Below are positions 41,287 to 51,829 of a stretch of DNA of 64,000 bases, piece by piece; within the stretch, counting starts at the first letter, position 1; each line of letters begins with the position of its first letter. The stretch lies in sequence record OZ335963.1. One strand, written 5' to 3'. The notes beneath the pieces are model-generated. The model was not told the origin of the DNA, searched no databases, and saw only the letters and a list, made by a program, of their open reading frames with translations. The stretch comes from a phage. A program made the translations under genes and the position numbers.

Positions 41287-41465
41287 TTCTGTATTTACCC
41301 ATTACCGCACTTGGGCTCGACCTTATTACAGGTTGGCGGGAATCCCTCATAGAATCATGAGGTCCAGGTTGTTCCCATGTTATTTGAATGTAAATATTTT
41401 TGCCGTAATACTATACCAGTGTGGCTTCATTAAAATTTTTTCATTGAGTCATTTTACCTCTCCAA

Positions 41466-41520
41466 GTAATTATGAATATACTATCACAATTTTAGGAGAA
41501 AGTAAACTGCTATTTACCTT
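41466..41520 (-). promoter_or_regulatory. early promoter
   Basis: Minus-strand GTTTAC...TGTGATAGTATATTC. Confidence 0.5.
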
Positions 41521-41812
41521 TAATTACTTTAGCTGCTTCGATAGCCGCTTGCTGAAGGTCGTCCATAGACATACCGAATTTAGAAGCAAAGTTATCAATT
41601 TTCTTTTCGACAGCATTCAAAGGCTTGGCCTGTTTACCTTCATTAGCGCCAGGAAGAGCGAGAATACGCTCTTTGTCAATATAAAGGCTTACAAGTTTCT
41701 TACGGTCTTTATCGGACAAATCATGAAATGAATGAGCCTTTTTATTTATAGCGGCTTCTAATTTACTCGCAGTTACGCGGGCTTCAGTGATAAATTCTTG
41801 ATAGGTTTTCAT
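41510..41812 (-). CDS. ipII: internal protein II
   Basis: 100 aa with capsid targeting sequence MKTYQEFITEA. Confidence 0.85.
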   Translation of the reverse strand: MKTYQEFITEARVTASKLEAAINKKAHSFHDLSDKDRKKLVSLYIDKERILALPGANEGKQAKPLNAVEKKIDNFASKFGMSMDDLQQAAIEAAKVIKGK

Positions 41813-41853
41813 ATGTTTCCTTTAAATGTAAATAGGCCTAAGTATCGGCCTTA

Positions 41854-42429
41854 TTAATTACCACGGGCTGCATTAGCAACGGCATAAGCATACTGAACAT
41901 TAGCGTCTTTAAACGTACCTTTAGAGGTATCTATTTCTGCCTTAAAGCCGCCTTTAGCCATAACATCGGCGAATTCTTTACGGAAAGCCATTGCATCAAG
42001 ACCTTTCCATGTTGATTTGTGCTTGGCGAATTCAAGACCAGCGTAGTTGACAGCTTTAGCCAATTTATTATCAATGACCCATTTACCGGCTTTAGGCACA
42101 AACTTCGGACCTTTTTGTTTAGAGAACAGTTTTAAATTCCAGCGACGAAGATCACTATCGGCTTTAACAAAAGCTGCGTCTAAGTTACTAGCAACAACAT
42201 CTTCAATATGAGCAAATTTAAGTCCGTCAACTTCAATATTTAGATCGTTACGCCAGCGAAGTCCTTCCCAAGCGAAAGCTTTAAAATCAGAAGCTTTTGT
42301 GGCTAGATATCGTTCAAGCGGAGCAGTTTTAGGGTCAAAGCCGTTTCCTCGGTAAGTCCACTCATCTTTATTAATGCCTTTGGCCTTTTCCGCAGAAGCT
42401 TCAGCGATAAATTCTTTATACGTTTTCAT
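41854..42429 (-). CDS. ipIII: internal protein III
   Basis: 191 aa with capsid targeting sequence MKTYKEFIAEA. Confidence 0.85.
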   Translation of the reverse strand: MKTYKEFIAEASAEKAKGINKDEWTYRGNGFDPKTAPLERYLATKASDFKAFAWEGLRWRNDLNIEVDGLKFAHIEDVVASNLDAAFVKADSDLRRWNLKLFSKQKGPKFVPKAGKWVIDNKLAKAVNYAGLEFAKHKSTWKGLDAMAFRKEFADVMAKGGFKAEIDTSKGTFKDANVQYAYAVANAARGN

Positions 42430-42454
42430 GTGTTTCCTTTAAATATTTTAATTA

Positions 42455-43031
<577 letters not shown>

Positions 43032-45313: not shown

Positions 45314-45907
45314 TTATTTCAGAGAATTAATGTATTCCTGAACATCGGCAGAGGTAGTTTCAACCCCAGAAATATTACCGTTAAAGGTTTCAACTCGAGC
45401 AAGGGTATCTTCAATATCAACCTTAGTCAGTGCTGCAATTTCAACTACATCATCAGCAGTACTAATTCCAAGGGCATTTGCTGCACGAGTTTCACGGATA
45501 TATTCCAATTTAACCGCAAGTTCTTGACGAGCATCATCTAACTCAACTACTTTCTTGGCGATTTCAATTCGCATTTCAGCATAACCGTCAGCCTTAGTAG
45601 TCAACTGCTCAGCTGTTCGACGATATAGTAAACCGAGTTTAGCATGCATTGTTACATCTTGGCCTTCGGAAAGAAGTTTACGAATTTCACGCTCTTTTGA
45701 TTCGGCCTGTCGATTCTTTTCGATAACAAGTTCACGAATACGTTTTTCTTCGTTAATAGATTTAACAGAAGCAGTTTTTAGATCTTTAATTTTATCAAGT
45801 AGTTTTGCTGCTGCAGCAGTATACTGTTCTTCGACAGATAGATTTTTAGCCATAGCAGAACCAAGTTTAGTGCGAATAAACTCAACAATTTTCTTCAGTG
45901 TGTTCAT
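45314..45907 (-). CDS. coiled-coil protein, possibly PspA/IM30-like
   Basis: 197 aa, largely helical/charged; N- and C-terminal segments loosely resemble PspA; family call tentative. Confidence 0.5.
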
Positions 45908-46011
45908 AGTATTTCCTTAGGTTGATTAAGATTTAAAATCCGTAAAAGTAGTATTATACTCTATCATCAAGTTACAGGCTCATAATATCTCAATCATGAG
46001 CCTATGTAAAC

Positions 46012-46275
46012 TTATTTCATATTATTGAAATATTCTTCTGCAATTTCGTCGTTATCGTGGTAAACTTTAGAAGACAGTTTAACATAACCTTCAGCAGTGA
46101 ACATATTAATCACAACCTTTACAGTATACCACTGTCCGTCTTCATTACCCATTACTGCGTAAGTTTCAAACATCGGATGATCAGGACCGATAACTTTAAT
46201 ATCATTCACTGTACGACCGAAATCTTCTGAAACGCATTTCATAAAGAAGTTGAACAGTTCGCCGTAATTATCCAT
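46012..46275 (-). CDS. hypothetical protein
   Basis: Start at MDNYGELFNFF (87 aa) downstream of the 46308 early promoter. Confidence 0.5.
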   Translation of the reverse strand: MDNYGELFNFFMKCVSEDFGRTVNDIKVIGPDHPMFETYAVMGNEDGQWYTVKVVINMFTAEGYVKLSSKVYHDNDEIAEEYFNNMK

Positions 46276-46307
46276 TTCATTCTCCAAGTTGTTTTTCTGT
46301 ATCAGTA

Positions 46308-46372
46308 GTTGATAGTTGTATAGTACCATGGAAGAACAGGGATGTAAACAGTTTTGTGAAAAAATTTTTAAA
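46308..46372 (-). promoter_or_regulatory. T4-type early promoter (third copy of the module)
   Basis: AAAAATTTTTTCACAAAACTGTTTACATCCCTGTTCTTCCATGGTACTATAC on the minus strand. Confidence 0.7.
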
Positions 46373-46482
46373 AAGTTTTAGGGAATTCTAGGGCAGGGAG
46401 GGGCAATTAAAGGATAGGATAATATATTATAAAGGGTAGAAACTAAATGATGCCTAGAGAGGTCCAGAAAGGTCTAGATACC

Positions 46483-46507
46483 AAAAAGCCCTATCATTTA
46501 GATAGGG
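46483..46507 (-). terminator. rho-independent terminator
   Basis: CCCTATC-UAAAU-GATAGGG stem followed by CUUUUU, just after the stop of ORF 46516-47079. Confidence 0.6.
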
Positions 46508-46515
46508 ATTTAAAA

Positions 46516-47079
46516 TTATTTACCTAGTTTAGTTATTATAGCTTCGGCAGCAGCTTTTAGCTTAGATGCGGTGTTAATACGATTTTTAATTTCAGTATAC
46601 GCATCGCCAAGAACATCAAGGCTATCAGAATAAACACTTACACTATTGCGTTCGCTATTTGAAATAGAACCTTTAGTTTTACGATCAAAATCGGTGTACA
46701 CGTCTTGAAGATCACGGGCTGCCTTCTTTGCATCATCCAATGCGTCAAGAGCTTTATTTAAAGCATTAACATATTTTTTAGTGTCAAACATATTCTTAGA
46801 AATTTTAACAGGTGCACGTTCAGGAGTAGCTAATGCAGATTTAGGAACCTGAGCGCCAGATGCCAGTTTCTTAGAAATTTTGAAAAATGCTTTATTGAAT
46901 TTATTTTCTTGACTCATCGTAAAAGAACTATTATCGATGTTATACATTTCAATAGCTTTAGCTTTCCACTTAAGAAAATCGCCGCGGTCTTTTGGGTCTA
47001 ATTGGAAGAATACTTTAGTAAGATCTGCTTCAGATGGTAATTTTGCTGCTTCGGTTAAAAATTCGGCATAGGTTTTCAT
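46516..47079 (-). CDS. internal-protein-like (capsid targeting sequence)
   Basis: 187 aa starting MKTYAEFLTEA, the prohead-protease cleaved targeting signal shared with IPII/IPIII. Confidence 0.6.
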   Translation of the reverse strand: MKTYAEFLTEAAKLPSEADLTKVFFQLDPKDRGDFLKWKAKAIEMYNIDNSSFTMSQENKFNKAFFKISKKLASGAQVPKSALATPERAPVKISKNMFDTKKYVNALNKALDALDDAKKAARDLQDVYTDFDRKTKGSISNSERNSVSVYSDSLDVLGDAYTEIKNRINTASKLKAAAEAIITKLGK

Positions 47080-47168
47080 TTAAAATCCTTGAAATAATTT
47101 ATCGGTTGGTTATTAATTATTTATTACTTTGTTATTATCCGTAACAGCATTCTATATGTGATTCAAAC

Positions 47169-47197
47169 TAAAAAGCCCCAACCTTTTGGTCGGGGCT
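47169..47197 (-). terminator. rho-independent terminator (copy 1 of 34-bp repeat)
   Basis: GCCCCGACC-AAAA-GGUUGGGGC followed by U5. Confidence 0.7.
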
Positions 47198-47204
47198 AAG
47201 AATG

Positions 47205-47678
47205 TTATTTGATTTGTTTAGCAGACCAAATGCGGTCTTTAATAATTTTTTGGATGTCTTCAACATACTCAAGAGAGTGAACATGTGGATTATCTTTGAA
47301 ACTATAAGCACGGGCTAACTTTTGGCCTTCGGTTTTGATTACTAAAAGCTCTTTAAGGATAGCTTCATATTTAGCAATAATTCCTTTAACGATATTTTTT
47401 TCTTGTGCCGCTTTAGGATCTGCTTTAGGAGCAGGTTTACCCGAAGCCTTTGCAAAAGCAGCGCCAGTAGCAACTAGACTTTTCCAGGCCATACTAACTG
47501 CATTTCCCGTAAATCCTTCTGCTTTCATGTCGCGAGCAAATTGGAATCGTGATTCGTCAGAAGCATCTTTATAGGAATATTTACCCGCTGCAATGGCTGC
47601 TTTTGCGACAGCTTGAATTTCGGTGCTAGATGCTTCATTTAACACCGCTTCATTTAAAAATTGAGCATATGATTTCAT
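47205..47678 (-). CDS. internal-protein-like (capsid targeting sequence)
   Basis: 157 aa starting MKSYAQFLNEA; late promoter upstream. Confidence 0.6.
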   Translation of the reverse strand: MKSYAQFLNEAVLNEASSTEIQAVAKAAIAAGKYSYKDASDESRFQFARDMKAEGFTGNAVSMAWKSLVATGAAFAKASGKPAPKADPKAAQEKNIVKGIIAKYEAILKELLVIKTEGQKLARAYSFKDNPHVHSLEYVEDIQKIIKDRIWSAKQIK

Positions 47679-47718
47679 CTTATTTCCTGTTTTAATTCGT
47701 GGATTTAATATACTACTG

Positions 47719-47726
47719 TATTTATA
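47719..47726 (-). promoter_or_regulatory. late promoter TATAAATA
   Basis: Exact TATAAATA on the minus strand about 40 nt upstream of the 47678 start. Confidence 0.5.
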
Positions 47727-47727
47727 C

Positions 47728-47756
47728 TAAAAAGCCCCAACCTTTCGGTCGGGGCT
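47728..47756 (-). terminator. rho-independent terminator at the end of the tRNA/stable-RNA transcript (copy 2 of repeat)
   Basis: GCCCCGACC-GAAA-GGUUGGGGC followed by U5. Confidence 0.7.
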
Positions 47757-47759
47757 AAG

Positions 47760-48072
47760 CCTTGCGGCAACCTTGTCGGGGTTCCACCTGCTAAGGCAAG
47801 TGTTTGTACGAAACGCCGGGATTTGAACCCGGTTATTAAGTAGTTGACGCTACTCAATATTTTTAAAAGGCCATATCTCGACCATATCCGAACGTTCCGT
47901 CAAAAACGCTACTCGGCTTACGGCAAAGATATTTCCTCGAATCGATAATTCTGTGCGCCGTTTCAGCTGTGATGTAAGGGGGCATTAACAGATCGTAAAG
48001 ATTTGTTAATGCCAGTCCTTACCCAGGGAACATCAGTCCGACGACTTACCGGTAGCGACCCGGTTTCTTGTT
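47760..48072 (-). ncRNA. candidate stable structured RNA(s) distal to the tRNA cluster
   Basis: No ORF; tRNA-like T-arm CCGGGTTCAAATCCCGG without an acceptor stem; 10-bp hairpin GGCATTAACA/TGTTAATGCC. Confidence 0.3.
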
Positions 48073-48148
48073 TGGTCGAGGCAGTAGGGATCGAACCTAC
48101 GACCTAGGACTTAGAAGGTCCTTGCTCTTCCTTCTGAGCTATGCCTCG
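48073..48148 (-). tRNA. tRNA-Arg (UCU)
   Basis: Hand-folded cloverleaf: acceptor CGAGGCA/TGCCTCG, anticodon loop CUUCUAA, T-arm GGTTCGATCC, CCA encoded. Confidence 0.8.
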
Positions 48149-48152
48149 TATT

Positions 48153-48227
48153 TGGCGGACATGCATGGATTCGAACCATGGACCAATTGATTAACAGTCA
48201 ACTGCTCTACCACTGAGCTACACATCC
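48153..48227 (-). tRNA. tRNA-Asn (GUU)
   Basis: Hand-folded: D-arm TAGCTCAGTGGTAGAGC, anticodon loop CUGUUAA, T-arm GGTTCGAATCC, CCA encoded; acceptor has two G-U pairs. Confidence 0.65.
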
Positions 48228-48231
48228 AAAT

Positions 48232-48318
48232 TGGTGGGGAGTGATGGAGTCGAACCACCCGAGTCGCAATGACAATGGATTTACAGTCCACACCGCTACC
48301 TCTACGGGATAACTCCCC
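48232..48318 (-). tRNA. tRNA-Tyr (GUA)
   Basis: Hand-folded: acceptor GGGGAGT/ACTCCCC, anticodon loop CUGUAAA, long variable arm, CCA encoded. Confidence 0.65.
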
Positions 48319-48331
48319 TTAATTCTTAATT

Positions 48332-48406
48332 TGGTGGCCCTGGGTGGAATTGAACCACCATCTGGCGATTATGAGTCGCTTGCTTGAACCTTCCAGCTAC
48401 AGGGCC
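48332..48406 (-). tRNA. tRNA with CAU anticodon (Ile or Met)
   Basis: Hand-folded: acceptor GGCCCTG/CAGGGCC, anticodon loop CUCAUAA, T-arm GGTTCAATTCC, CCA encoded. Confidence 0.7.
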
Positions 48407-48407
48407 T

Positions 48408-48483
48408 TGGTGCTGATTGACGGAATCGAACCGCCGACATCCTCATTACAAGTGAGGTGCTCTACCTACTGAGCTAAATCAGC
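48408..48483 (-). tRNA. tRNA-Thr (UGU)
   Basis: Hand-folded: acceptor GCTGATT/AATCAGC, anticodon stem CCTCA/TGAGG, loop CUUGUAA, CCA encoded. Confidence 0.8.
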
Positions 48484-48488
48484 AAAAC

Positions 48489-48578
48489 TGGCGGAGGCGA
48501 TAGGATTTGAACCTATGAGTCGCCGGAGCGACTGCCGGTTTTCAAGACCGGTGCATTAAACCACTCTGCCACGCCTCC
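48489..48578 (-). tRNA. tRNA-Ser (UGA)
   Basis: Hand-folded: acceptor GGAGGCG/CGCCTCC, anticodon loop CUUGAAA, long variable arm, CCA encoded. Confidence 0.8.
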
Positions 48579-48580
48579 AG

Positions 48581-48654
48581 TCTCCGCGGCAGGATTTGAA
48601 CCTGCGACATTCTGCTCCCAAAGCAGACGCTCTACCAAACTGAGCTACACGGAG
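48581..48654 (-). tRNA. tRNA-Pro (UGG), CCA not encoded
   Basis: Hand-folded: anticodon stem TCTGC/GCAGA, loop UUUGGGA; 3' end abuts tRNA-Ser with 2-nt spacer. Confidence 0.8.
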
Positions 48655-48664
48655 TAAATTAAAT

Positions 48665-48738
<74 letters not shown>

Positions 48739-48743
48739 AAATT

Positions 48744-48830
48744 TGGTGCGAGAAGTGGGACTCGAACCCACAAGGAAATCATTCCGCAGCATTTTAAGTG
48801 CTGTGCCTTTACCAATTTGACCATTCTCGC
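48744..48830 (-). tRNA. tRNA-Leu (UAA)
   Basis: Hand-folded: acceptor GCGAGAA/TTCTCGC, anticodon loop CUUAAAA, long variable arm, CCA encoded. Confidence 0.8.
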
Positions 48831-48831
48831 G

Positions 48832-48904
48832 CTGGGAATAAAGGACTCGAACCTTTGCATCTAGCAGTCAAAGTGCTATGCCTTACCAACTTGGCTAATT
48901 CCCA
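48832..48904 (-). tRNA. tRNA-Gln (UUG), CCA not encoded
   Basis: Hand-folded: acceptor TGGGAAT/ATTCCCA, anticodon loop CUUUGAC; 3' end 1 nt from tRNA-Leu 5' end. Confidence 0.8.
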
Positions 48905-50380: not shown

Positions 50381-50445
50381 TAGTTGATAGGGTAATAGTA
50401 TCACAACTAAAACCCTATGTAAACAACTTTGTGAAATATTTATTA
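50381..50445 (-). promoter_or_regulatory. early promoter
   Basis: Minus-strand GTTTACATAGGGTTTTAGTTGTGATACTATTACC. Confidence 0.6.
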
Positions 50446-50730
50446 CAAAAGATTTTTAGCAATAATCTTGAGATGTGCCGCAGAAATGTGTTTAGCTTTA
50501 AACAACGCAGTTTCTTCAGCAGGAGAGATAATGATTGTAGCACCATCCTTTTTAGCAGACCACCCATCACCTAGGTAAACAGTACCTTTGATTTCTTCGC
50601 CATCAACCAGACTAATCATTGGTTTACCTTCTCGTCCTTTATTTGCTTTAATAACTTCAGAAGTAAGAGTAGCTTCGGTAATAGTAGAAACTGGGGTAGT
50701 TGTAGAAGTAAATTCTTTAAATGTTTTCAT
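50443..50730 (-). CDS. ipI: internal protein I (IPI, anti-restriction)
   Basis: 95-aa precursor with 19-residue targeting sequence MKTFKEFTSTTTPVSTITE before Ala20; T4 position upstream of 57B. Confidence 0.75.
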   Translation of the reverse strand: MKTFKEFTSTTTPVSTITEATLTSEVIKANKGREGKPMISLVDGEEIKGTVYLGDGWSAKKDGATIIISPAEETALFKAKHISAAHLKIIAKNLL

Positions 50731-50744
50731 TTTATTTTCCTAAT

Positions 50745-50810
50745 TAATTTTGATGAGATAATGGTATCACAACTAAAACCCTGTGTAAACAGCTTTGTGA
50801 AATTATTTTA
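50745..50810 (-). promoter_or_regulatory. early promoter (duplicated leader module, copy 1)
   Basis: Minus-strand GTTTACACAGGGTTTTAGTTGTGATACCATTATC; flanking 5' leader duplicated at 51075. Confidence 0.6.
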
Positions 50811-51060
50811 AATCTTCTAATCGTTTCTTCATCTTAGAACCGTTCTTAGCGATTTCGCCTGCATCAGAGCATAATGCTAAAAGAGCTTTAACTTTAGTTT
50901 GGTCTCCTTTAAAAGATGAAGGATCGACTGCAGCAGCAAGTTCTTTAATACGAGAGAAAAGACGCTCAGCTTCAGCTAAAGCCATTCCAAGCTTTACTTC
51001 CATACCGTGGGAAGATTCAGTAATAGTAGTTTTTGTAGCAAACTCTTTGAAAGTTTTCAT
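50803..51060 (-). CDS. internal-protein-like (capsid targeting sequence)
   Basis: 85 aa starting MKTFKEFATKTTITE; 5' leader and first codons duplicated from ipI. Confidence 0.55.
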   Translation of the reverse strand: MKTFKEFATKTTITESSHGMEVKLGMALAEAERLFSRIKELAAAVDPSSFKGDQTKVKALLALCSDAGEIAKNGSKMKKRLEDLK

Positions 51061-51074
51061 TTTATTTTCCTAAT

Positions 51075-51829
<755 letters not shown>

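Follow-up and report, generated by a model that had tools for sequence, protein, structure and literature searches.

A repeated terminator-like hairpin brackets a candidate late gene cassette between rnaC and e.8 in Tequatrovirus phages and may mediate its exchange

Described exchange loci of T-even phages and the rnaC-e.8 locus

Promoter-early and promoter-middle stem-loop elements (PeSL and PmSL) and a mini-circle model for gene exchange in T4-like phages have been described (Arbiol 2010, PMC2839356; Comeau 2014, PMC4122927), and for RB49 and phi1 flanking promoter/stem-loop elements were reported to recombine with the excision of circles (PMC2839356). As cited in PMC2839356, PMC4122927 and PMC12373910, Repoila 1994 (EMBO J 13:4181) described two polymorphic internal protein (IP) loci of T-even phages with conserved flanking sequences, and according to Arbiol 2010 (PMC2839356) IP genes are absent elsewhere in T-even genomes. 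The T4 proteins IPI, IPII and IPIII are injected inhibitors of GmrSD-type Type IV restriction (PMC12373910; PMC3012670; PMC9391042). In laboratory evolution of T4, deletion and amplification between microhomologies of 6-10 bp occurred within a few rounds (Srikant 2022, PMC9391042). Here we describe the region between rnaC and e.8 in a 64,000-nt stretch of phage DNA (sequence record OZ335963.1; the whole stretch is called the window), in which two direct copies of a 34-nt terminator-like hairpin, T, bracket an internal-protein-like open reading frame (ORF), ipA, together with a predicted late promoter. A second internal-protein-like ORF, ipB, lies downstream. Comparison with related genomes makes it likely that the duplicated T encloses a late-gene cassette, and that recombination at T removes, inserts or replaces this cassette.

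T resembles the PeSL and PmSL elements in several respects. It is a short conserved regulatory motif in which a terminator stem-loop immediately precedes a promoter, it is intergenic in a hyperplastic region and repeated on both sides of a non-essential ORF, and close relatives carry a single copy at the empty site without the ORF. The mechanism proposed is also the same, namely homologous recombination between the copies with excision and integration of a circle, which is deduced here from comparing genomes. In contrast to the sigma-70-like early or MotA middle promoters of these elements, the promoter next to T is a late-type TATAAATA box; no early-type promoter was found next to T, and all that follows copy 1 is a weak 9-of-12 match. 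Only the terminator is repeated, over 34-40 bp rather than ~100 bp, and it has a strong GC-rich stem, unlike the AT-rich stem-loops of the T4/PST pair. Moreover, T has 1-2 copies per genome in the records sampled, all at one locus in the window and the relatives inspected, whereas PeSL copies of ~100 bp are many and dispersed.

The locus also shares with the two IP loci of Repoila 1994, as these are presented in the later papers, the variable ORFs, the conserved 11-aa N-terminal leader and the short conserved brackets that are thought to mediate shuffling. The window's own ipI (50384-51148) and ipII/ipIII (41465-42510) loci show early-promoter repeats of that type. In contrast to the loci of Repoila 1994, as far as the later papers describe them, rnaC-e.8 is a third site, and its flanking repeat is an intrinsic terminator and not an early promoter. 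The products of ipA and ipB resemble the T4 IPs in the leader MK(T/S)Y..F(I/L).E|A, in being small, basic, rich in Lys/Ala and non-essential, and in varying between phages; they differ in showing no detectable similarity past the leader, and their packaging, cleavage, injection and any anti-restriction activity are predictions. As in the T4 events of Srikant 2022 (PMC9391042), where ipIII was among the lost genes, DNA between short direct repeats appears to be lost or gained. However, the repeats there are chance microhomologies of 6-10 bp, whereas here a presumably functional element of 34-40 bp is found in hundreds of genomes. The principle is already published (Repoila 1994, as cited later; Arbiol 2010, PMC2839356; Comeau 2014, PMC4122927), and the value of the present case is incremental. 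What is new is the locus, the combination of a late promoter with a strong GC-rich terminator, the repetition of the terminator only, and two unannotated candidate internal proteins.

Terminator repeat and junctions among relatives

The two copies of T are 559 bp apart in direct orientation (Table 1). They differ at a single position, T>C on the plus strand, which lies in the hairpin loop, and the in-register repeat extends to 40 nt with 93% identity (47161-47200 and 47720-47759). When the 64-kb window was searched for 34-nt matches with at most 3 mismatches, none was found beyond the two copies, and 100 dinucleotide-preserving shuffles of the window gave 0 such matches. On the minus strand both copies fold into AGCCCCGACC-(G/A)AAA-GGUUGGGGCU followed by UUUUU, a stem of 10 pairs, 7 of them G-C, closed by a tetraloop. 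Hairpin energies of -20.3 and -19.5 kcal/mol were obtained for the two copies, and in a 61-nt context their z-scores were -3.6 and -5.3.

Both copies have the GC-rich stem, the short loop and the immediate U-run on the transcribed strand that characterize an intrinsic terminator, and both are located where a terminator is expected, copy 2 after the rnaC-like RNA and copy 1 starting 5 nt past the ipA stop codon. The T-equivalent hairpins of phage G8 carry the annotation "putative transcriptional terminator". In a small sample of relatives the 5'-arm variants GA, AG and UAG each pair with the constant 3' arm GGUUGGGG, and the UU variant of RB69 and RPN187 retains a fold of -16 kcal/mol in spite of the 2x2 internal loop that it introduces. 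T is therefore best described as a predicted Rho-independent terminator closing the tRNA/rnaD/rnaC transcription unit of T-even phages. The earlier note had claimed a 34-nt repeat with one loop difference, a GC-rich stem and U-run on the minus strand for each copy, and a gene with its late promoter enclosed between the copies. The window search and the shuffles bear out the repeat, the folding gave the 10-bp stem with U5, and the enclosed ORF is real, its promoter being a predicted one.

T is confined to the rnaC-e.8 locus in the window and in the relatives inspected. The 40-mer was found at 928 places in 534 phage records, and all of the 60 records sampled had it at 1 or 2 places. The other terminators of the window are unrelated to T in sequence, and the repeat families found there besides T consist of early promoters and of the block of ribosome-binding site and leader in IP genes. 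An Rfam search over 45-50 kb returned ten tRNAs only, with no family for T or for rnaC/rnaD.

The window belongs to Tequatrovirus, and its closest match at this locus is phage ime09 (97.6% over 46200-48069). When the locus was aligned pairwise to six relatives, every junction was inside T. ime09 is arranged like the window, with both genes and two T copies. In AR1, ipA lies between two T copies and is followed directly by the e.8 flank, without ipB; AR1 matches the window at 46200-46532 and 47167-48069, and the two matches overlap by 55 bp. LF73P3, ESh24 and RB69 lack exactly the 559-bp unit and contain ipB only. They match the window at 46200-47200 and 47720-48069 with an overlap of 40 bp, and their single T is flanked on the left like copy 1 and on the right like copy 2. 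Neither gene is present in T4 and T6, whose only T has rnaC on one side and the e.8 flank on the other; in T4 it is found ~50 nt past rnaC. The T4 matches (46200-46507 and 47724-48076) overlap by 30 bp within this T.

The four states were then counted with junction probes of 160 nt, a record being counted if at least 80% of the probe was covered. All counts are approximate, as they include redundant GenBank/RefSeq pairs and laboratory variants. Direct probe counts gave 128 records with both genes and 278 with ipA only. ipB was present in 165 records, counted independently of ipA, and the probe spanning the e.8 flank, T and rnaC was found in 358 records; because BLAST pieces up to 580 bp apart were joined, so that these probes also counted ipA loci, the classes with ipB only (~37) and with neither gene (~80) were obtained by subtraction. 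The classes sum to ~523, consistent with the 534 T-holding records. The two-cassette interval (window 45900-48150) is covered to at least 80% in 128 records, in agreement with the count for both genes, and a separate count of records holding ipB likewise gave 165. ipA is present in ~78% of records and ipB in ~30%, and both are missing from T4. Every inspected Tequatrovirus genome with ipA has both T copies. Scans of IMG/VR gave 9 loci for ipA relatives and 6 for the hairpin, which served as additional examples and were too few for statistics. An assembly artefact was considered and rejected, as the arrangement recurs in hundreds of independent genomes.

Different contents were found between the same hairpins. 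In G8 the two hairpins are the same, and the ipA allele that they enclose has a DNA identity of only 81%; a third allele, ~74% identical, is found in Mosigvirus and Dhakavirus. The loop of copy 1 is AAAA with ipB downstream in the window and AAAA with e.8 downstream in G8, and it is GAAA with ipB in L012 and L013 and GAAA with e.8 in AR1. The presence of all four loop/flank combinations within ~20 nt implies recombination or recurrent mutation. The two copies within one genome share lineage variants, GCCCCGACC being present in both copies of Tequatrovirus and GCCCCUUCC in both copies of Mosigvirus RPN187. In JS10, a Dhakavirus, the copies are of a GGCCCUUCC...GGGCC variant, repeated perfectly over 31 nt (L011, 1892-1922 and 2515-2545), and bracket a different gene, which matches phrog_2143, and in QL01 the corresponding T-variant copies (L008, 1169-1199 and 2300-2330) bracket ipA together with the phrog_2143 gene. 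This Dhakavirus gene encodes 184 aa with a hydrophobic N-terminus and belongs to a family of "unknown function".

In the mechanism that we propose, the 559-bp interval would be a self-contained late cassette, in which ipA has its own late promoter, ribosome-binding site and terminator. The T copies would insulate the cassette transcriptionally and, at the same time, supply 34-40 bp of near-perfect homology for the very active recombination machinery of the phage. Crossing-over between them would delete the cassette and leave one T, and insertion or replacement would follow if a resident T recombined with either a donor genome or an excised circle of T and ipA. The ipB cassette would be gained or lost likewise, through a shorter homology (AAAAAGCCC plus flank) between T and T_C, the terminator downstream of ipB. 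The result would be a small hyperplastic locus whose contents vary among otherwise ~95% identical phages. Such a mechanism is plausible in the light of the T4 microhomology events (PMC9391042) and the recombination in RB49/phi1 (PMC2839356). The recombination at T is predicted from the comparison of genomes, and the event may have been an insertion or a deletion.

These results also bear on the suggestion of the earlier note that the gene was inserted or exchanged by recombination between repeated terminators, for which a comparison of the junction in related T-even genomes had been proposed as the check. The gene was found to be present or absent with the junctions in T and in four states, which supports the suggestion on comparative grounds. 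Two observations had been named as speaking against it. One, an occurrence of the repeats at many unrelated sites, is contradicted by the 1-2 places per sampled record and the 2 in the window. The other, the gene without the flanking repeats, was not seen in the Tequatrovirus genomes inspected and was seen in part in QL01-type genomes of the distant genus Dhakavirus.

RB69, which belongs to another genus, Mosigvirus, is 94-95% identical to window 46200-48073 across ipB, T and rnaC (L003, 1603-2915), and this suggests that the segment was exchanged recently between genera. The ipB of RB69 is apparently frameshifted and is annotated as overlapping ORFs 148c and 149c.

Cassette anatomy and candidate internal proteins

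All genes of the region are on the minus strand, in the order ten tRNA genes (48904-48073), rnaD/rnaC-like RNAs, T copy 2, TATAAATA, ipA, T copy 1, ipB, T_C, an early-type promoter and e.8 (Table 1). We take TATAAATA to be the T4 late-promoter consensus. The octamer is not enriched in the window (14 found and 10.6 expected), and the support for this box comes from its position and its conservation at the same spot in relatives, not from the octamer count. The order of terminator and then TATAAATA is kept in AR1, ime09, G8, QL01, JS10 and VR20 with different downstream genes, and the box at copy 2 is a putative late promoter. T_C is a different and weaker hairpin than T, and its promoter-distal flank CTAGATACCAAAAAGCCC is near-identical to the T flank in T4 (CTTAGATACC...) and in AR1 (CCTAGATACC...). 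The 5' block of ipB is 76% identical to its ipA counterpart (47647-47688), and ipII and ipIII have related sequences at their 5' ends. The rnaC/rnaD-like region was placed through window 47724-48076, which aligns at 93% to T4 (L001, 5326-5677), where rnaC and rnaD are located.

Table 1. Features of the rnaC-e.8 region, in window positions
Feature	Position	Strand	Remarks
T copy 2 (terminator, first on transcript)	47726-47759	minus	stem-loop 47733-47756, GAAA loop, U5
Late-promoter box TATAAATA (predicted)	47719-47726	minus	abuts U-run of copy 2; 40 nt upstream of ipA ATG
Shine-Dalgarno-like AGGAAA	47683-47688	minus	upstream of ipA start codon; read from sequence
ipA, 157-aa ORF	47205-47678	minus	internal-protein-like leader MKSYAQFLNE|A
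T copy 1 (terminator, downstream of ipA)	47167-47200	minus	stem-loop 47174-47197, AAAA loop, U5
5' homology block of ipB (ribosome-binding site and leader codons)	47048-47089	minus	
ipB, 187-aa ORF	46516-47079	minus	internal-protein-like leader MKTYAEFLTE|A
T_C (terminator, downstream of ipB)	46474-46513	minus	CCCUAUC-UAAAU-GAUAGGG, U5, -10.4 kcal/mol
Early-type promoter near e.8	~46320-46348		
e.8 homologue, conserved boundary of variable locus	46012-46275	minus	
rnaC-like and rnaD-like stable RNA region	47807-48070	minus	approximate, projected from T4

The predicted ipA protein has a pI of 9.5 with 13% Lys and 18% Ala, the pI of ipB is 9.4, and the values for ipA and ipB together (pI 9.4-9.5, 13-14% Lys, 13-18% Ala) match those of the window's ipII and ipIII. 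The leaders MKSYAQFLNEA of ipA and MKTYAEFLTEA of ipB correspond to MKTYQEFIAEA of T4 ipII/ipIII. A site of the prohead-protease (gp21) type, (L/I)xE|A, is present at residues 8-10 as LNE|A in ipA and LTE|A in ipB, and the window's ipII and ipIII have their site at this position too. BLASTP similarity between ipA and ipB is limited to the 11-aa leader, and hhalign found a weak match over a C-terminal 23-aa segment (probability 30%). Both proteins match phrog_2280, of "unknown function", over their full lengths. Sequence searches of Pfam, NCBIfam and PDB gave nothing significant for either; in Pfam, one chance match of ipB stayed below the gathering threshold.

No internal-protein annotation of ipA or ipB was found in the records and family libraries examined, and ipA homologues are named "hypothetical protein" in all cluster members read. 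The genes of the window's classical IP loci do match PHROGs annotated as internal virion protein, whereas ipA and ipB belong to no family annotated as internal virion or head protein. They also sit between rnaC and e.8, and not at the classical loci at 50.4-51.1 and 41.5-42.5 kb. The designation of ipA as internal-protein-like consequently holds for the leader, the protease site and the basic Lys/Ala-rich composition, which are all features of the sequence, but not for the locus or the annotated family. A fold that would define internal proteins does not exist. Because it has the capsid-targeting leader and the prohead-protease site of T-even internal proteins, ipA is probably a protein of the head interior that is injected along with the DNA, and packaging is predicted for ipB in the same way. 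A search of open-access text through the locus tags of ipA and ipB homologues returned nothing relevant, earlier recognition of the two as IPs, for example in Comeau 2007, being possible.

The ipA alleles are 153-157 aa long, with a near-invariant C-terminal half and a variable N-terminal half. Across three genera they are near-invariant from ~residue 80 to the C-terminus and differ strongly in residues 9-80, and an indel of 4-5 residues is present just past the leader. This pattern suggests that the N-terminal half of ipA is diversifying or mosaic.

The classical IP loci of the window contain repeats of their own. At the ipI locus (50384-51148) there are two internal-protein genes, of 95 and 85 aa, both with an MKTFKEF leader. 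In front of each is a repeat with an early promoter, a ribosome-binding site and the leader (123 nt at 85%), and the promoter part occurs three times. Early-promoter repeats of 57 nt with 81% identity (41465-41521 and 42454-42510) lie on either side of the ipIII-like (191 aa) and ipII-like (100 aa) genes, and the 5' blocks (47 nt) of these two genes are 91% identical. Gaprivervirus VR20 (L010, 2585-3110) has an insertion upstream of T, between rnaD- and rnaC-related sequences, with a 127-aa ORF that starts in a leader-like manner (MLTYAEFLN...), has a TATAAATA box of its own and gives no PHROG match.

Further observations concern the borders of the locus. The mechanical ORF of e.8 (46012-46329) encodes 105 aa, while the family match and the T4 protein begin at Met19 (MDNYGELF...), and the true start is probably at 46275. 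The tRNA cluster (48073-48904) consists of ten contiguous genes for Arg, Asn, Tyr, Met, Thr, Ser, Pro, Gly, Leu and Gln. T4 has eight tRNA genes and segB, and AR1, ESh24 and LF73P3 have a seg-like ORF instead of tRNA-Pro. At 48069-48073 the rnaD-like RNA of the window directly abuts tRNA-Arg, as it does in T4. The same junction in ime09, AR1, LF73P3, ESh24, G8 and RB69 contains an insertion of ~365 bp with an ORF of 114-116 aa, which is RB69ORF150c-like (MKGNVYLVVHDL...). The presence or absence of this insertion is a second polymorphism, located at a distance of ~300 bp from the terminator.

Origin of the arrangement and its meaning

The repeat could have arisen in other ways than through cassette exchange at T. 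ipA and ipB might be products of an old in-place tandem duplication of an internal-protein gene with its terminator, the repeat being a relic without a role in mobility. That both proteins match phrog_2280 over their full lengths, share the 11-aa leader and possibly a C-terminal 23-aa segment (hhalign probability 30%), and have 5' DNA blocks that are 76% identical would agree with such a history. However, the T copies are 97% identical while the gene bodies are unalignable, ipB has its own terminator with a different hairpin, and the repeat brackets ipA alone and not the ipA-ipB pair. A relic would also not be expected to show all four presence/absence states with the junctions in T, or to recur in Dhakavirus as the same duplicated terminator around an unrelated gene, and we regard this origin as very unlikely. 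Selection of the same optimal terminator on two occasions, with no shared history, would explain why hairpin variants preserve the pairing (GA, AG and UAG against the constant arm GGUUGGGG), which shows selection on structure. Yet the identity of the copies covers positions that do not pair (CUUA before the stem, the loop and the bases past the U-run) and reaches a perfect 36 nt in AR1, non-pairing positions included; moreover, the other terminators of the window are unrelated in sequence, and T is found at this locus only. Given the shared non-structural positions and the locus specificity, convergence is close to refuted.

Two further explanations concern how the exchange takes place. Double crossovers in the conserved neighbours, perhaps with Seg co-conversion from the tRNA cluster, could move the whole arrangement, T being incidental. 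The flanks are 91-97% identical among relatives, seg-type endonuclease genes are present in the tRNA clusters of T4, AR1, ESh24 and G8, and homing endonucleases have been named as a parallel source of exchange (Comeau 2014, PMC4122927). Such crossovers would account for the spread of the arrangement but not for its origin. They leave unexplained the three independent junction types within 30-55 bp around T as well as the lineage-specific variants common to both copies, and the tRNA cluster of the window contains no seg homing-endonuclease gene; this route as the whole explanation is unlikely. Alternatively, the GCCC...GGGC hairpin could be recognized or cut by a structure- or sequence-specific phage function, so that T would be an attachment-like capture site. 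As cited in PMC2839356, Mosig et al. linked about half of 13 mapped T4 deletions to GGGC/GCCC endpoints, and T contains this inverted pair; the clustering of junctions in T also holds for T versus T_C, with a flanking homology of only ~9-12 nt. On the other hand, the data need no more than homology-dependent recombination, no candidate recombinase was found at the locus, and the other GC-rich hairpins of the window are not duplicated; we regard a targeted hotspot as unlikely. In a wider version of this idea, which we also hold to be unlikely, rnaC-e.8 would be a third IP locus of Tevenvirinae that has so far escaped annotation, and the GCCC...GGGC hairpin a preferred, perhaps enzymatically targeted capture site like that proposed by Mosig for GGGC/GCCC deletion endpoints. 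Late-expressed cassettes coding for injected anti-defence proteins (ipA, ipB and the Dhakavirus phrog_2143 gene) would be gained, exchanged and lost through it.

Several points also weigh against the exchange of the cassette by recombination at T. QL01 and two IMG/VR contigs have a shorter and different hairpin downstream of ipA (AGCCCCGUCUGGGGCU), and the junction of the ipA indel between QL01 and JS10 lies in a repeated ribosome-binding-site/ATG segment (~38 nt) and not in T. T is therefore not the only usable linker, and ipA can move on other short regulatory repeats; these QL01-type exceptions still fit the behaviour of a cassette. At 34-40 bp, the homology stays below the ~50 bp that is generally given for homologous recombination in T4 to be efficient. 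Since ipA is present at this site in three genera and in ~78% of records, the empty site of T4 may have arisen secondarily, by loss, and not be ancestral. For the whole arrangement to pass between co-infecting phages, crossovers in the rnaC and e.8 flanks would be enough, and the repeats would not be needed. In addition, two of the four record classes were obtained by subtraction from counts with redundant records, and termination, late transcription, packaging and recombination are all predicted on the strength of sequence comparison.

With the exchange of a cassette at T as the likely reading, the locus provides a nucleotide-resolved example of T4-like accessory genes that would be reshuffled through repeated regulatory signals, with four states in ~520 genomes, and T is a well-defined site for recombination experiments. 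It also draws attention to two widespread unannotated genes with an IP packaging leader, ipA in ~78% and ipB in ~30% of records. All three T4 internal proteins are specific inhibitors of different GmrSD restriction enzymes (PMC12373910), and the products of ipA and ipB are therefore direct candidates for new anti-defence factors delivered by injection. They may also help to explain differences in host range among therapeutic Tequatrovirus phages.

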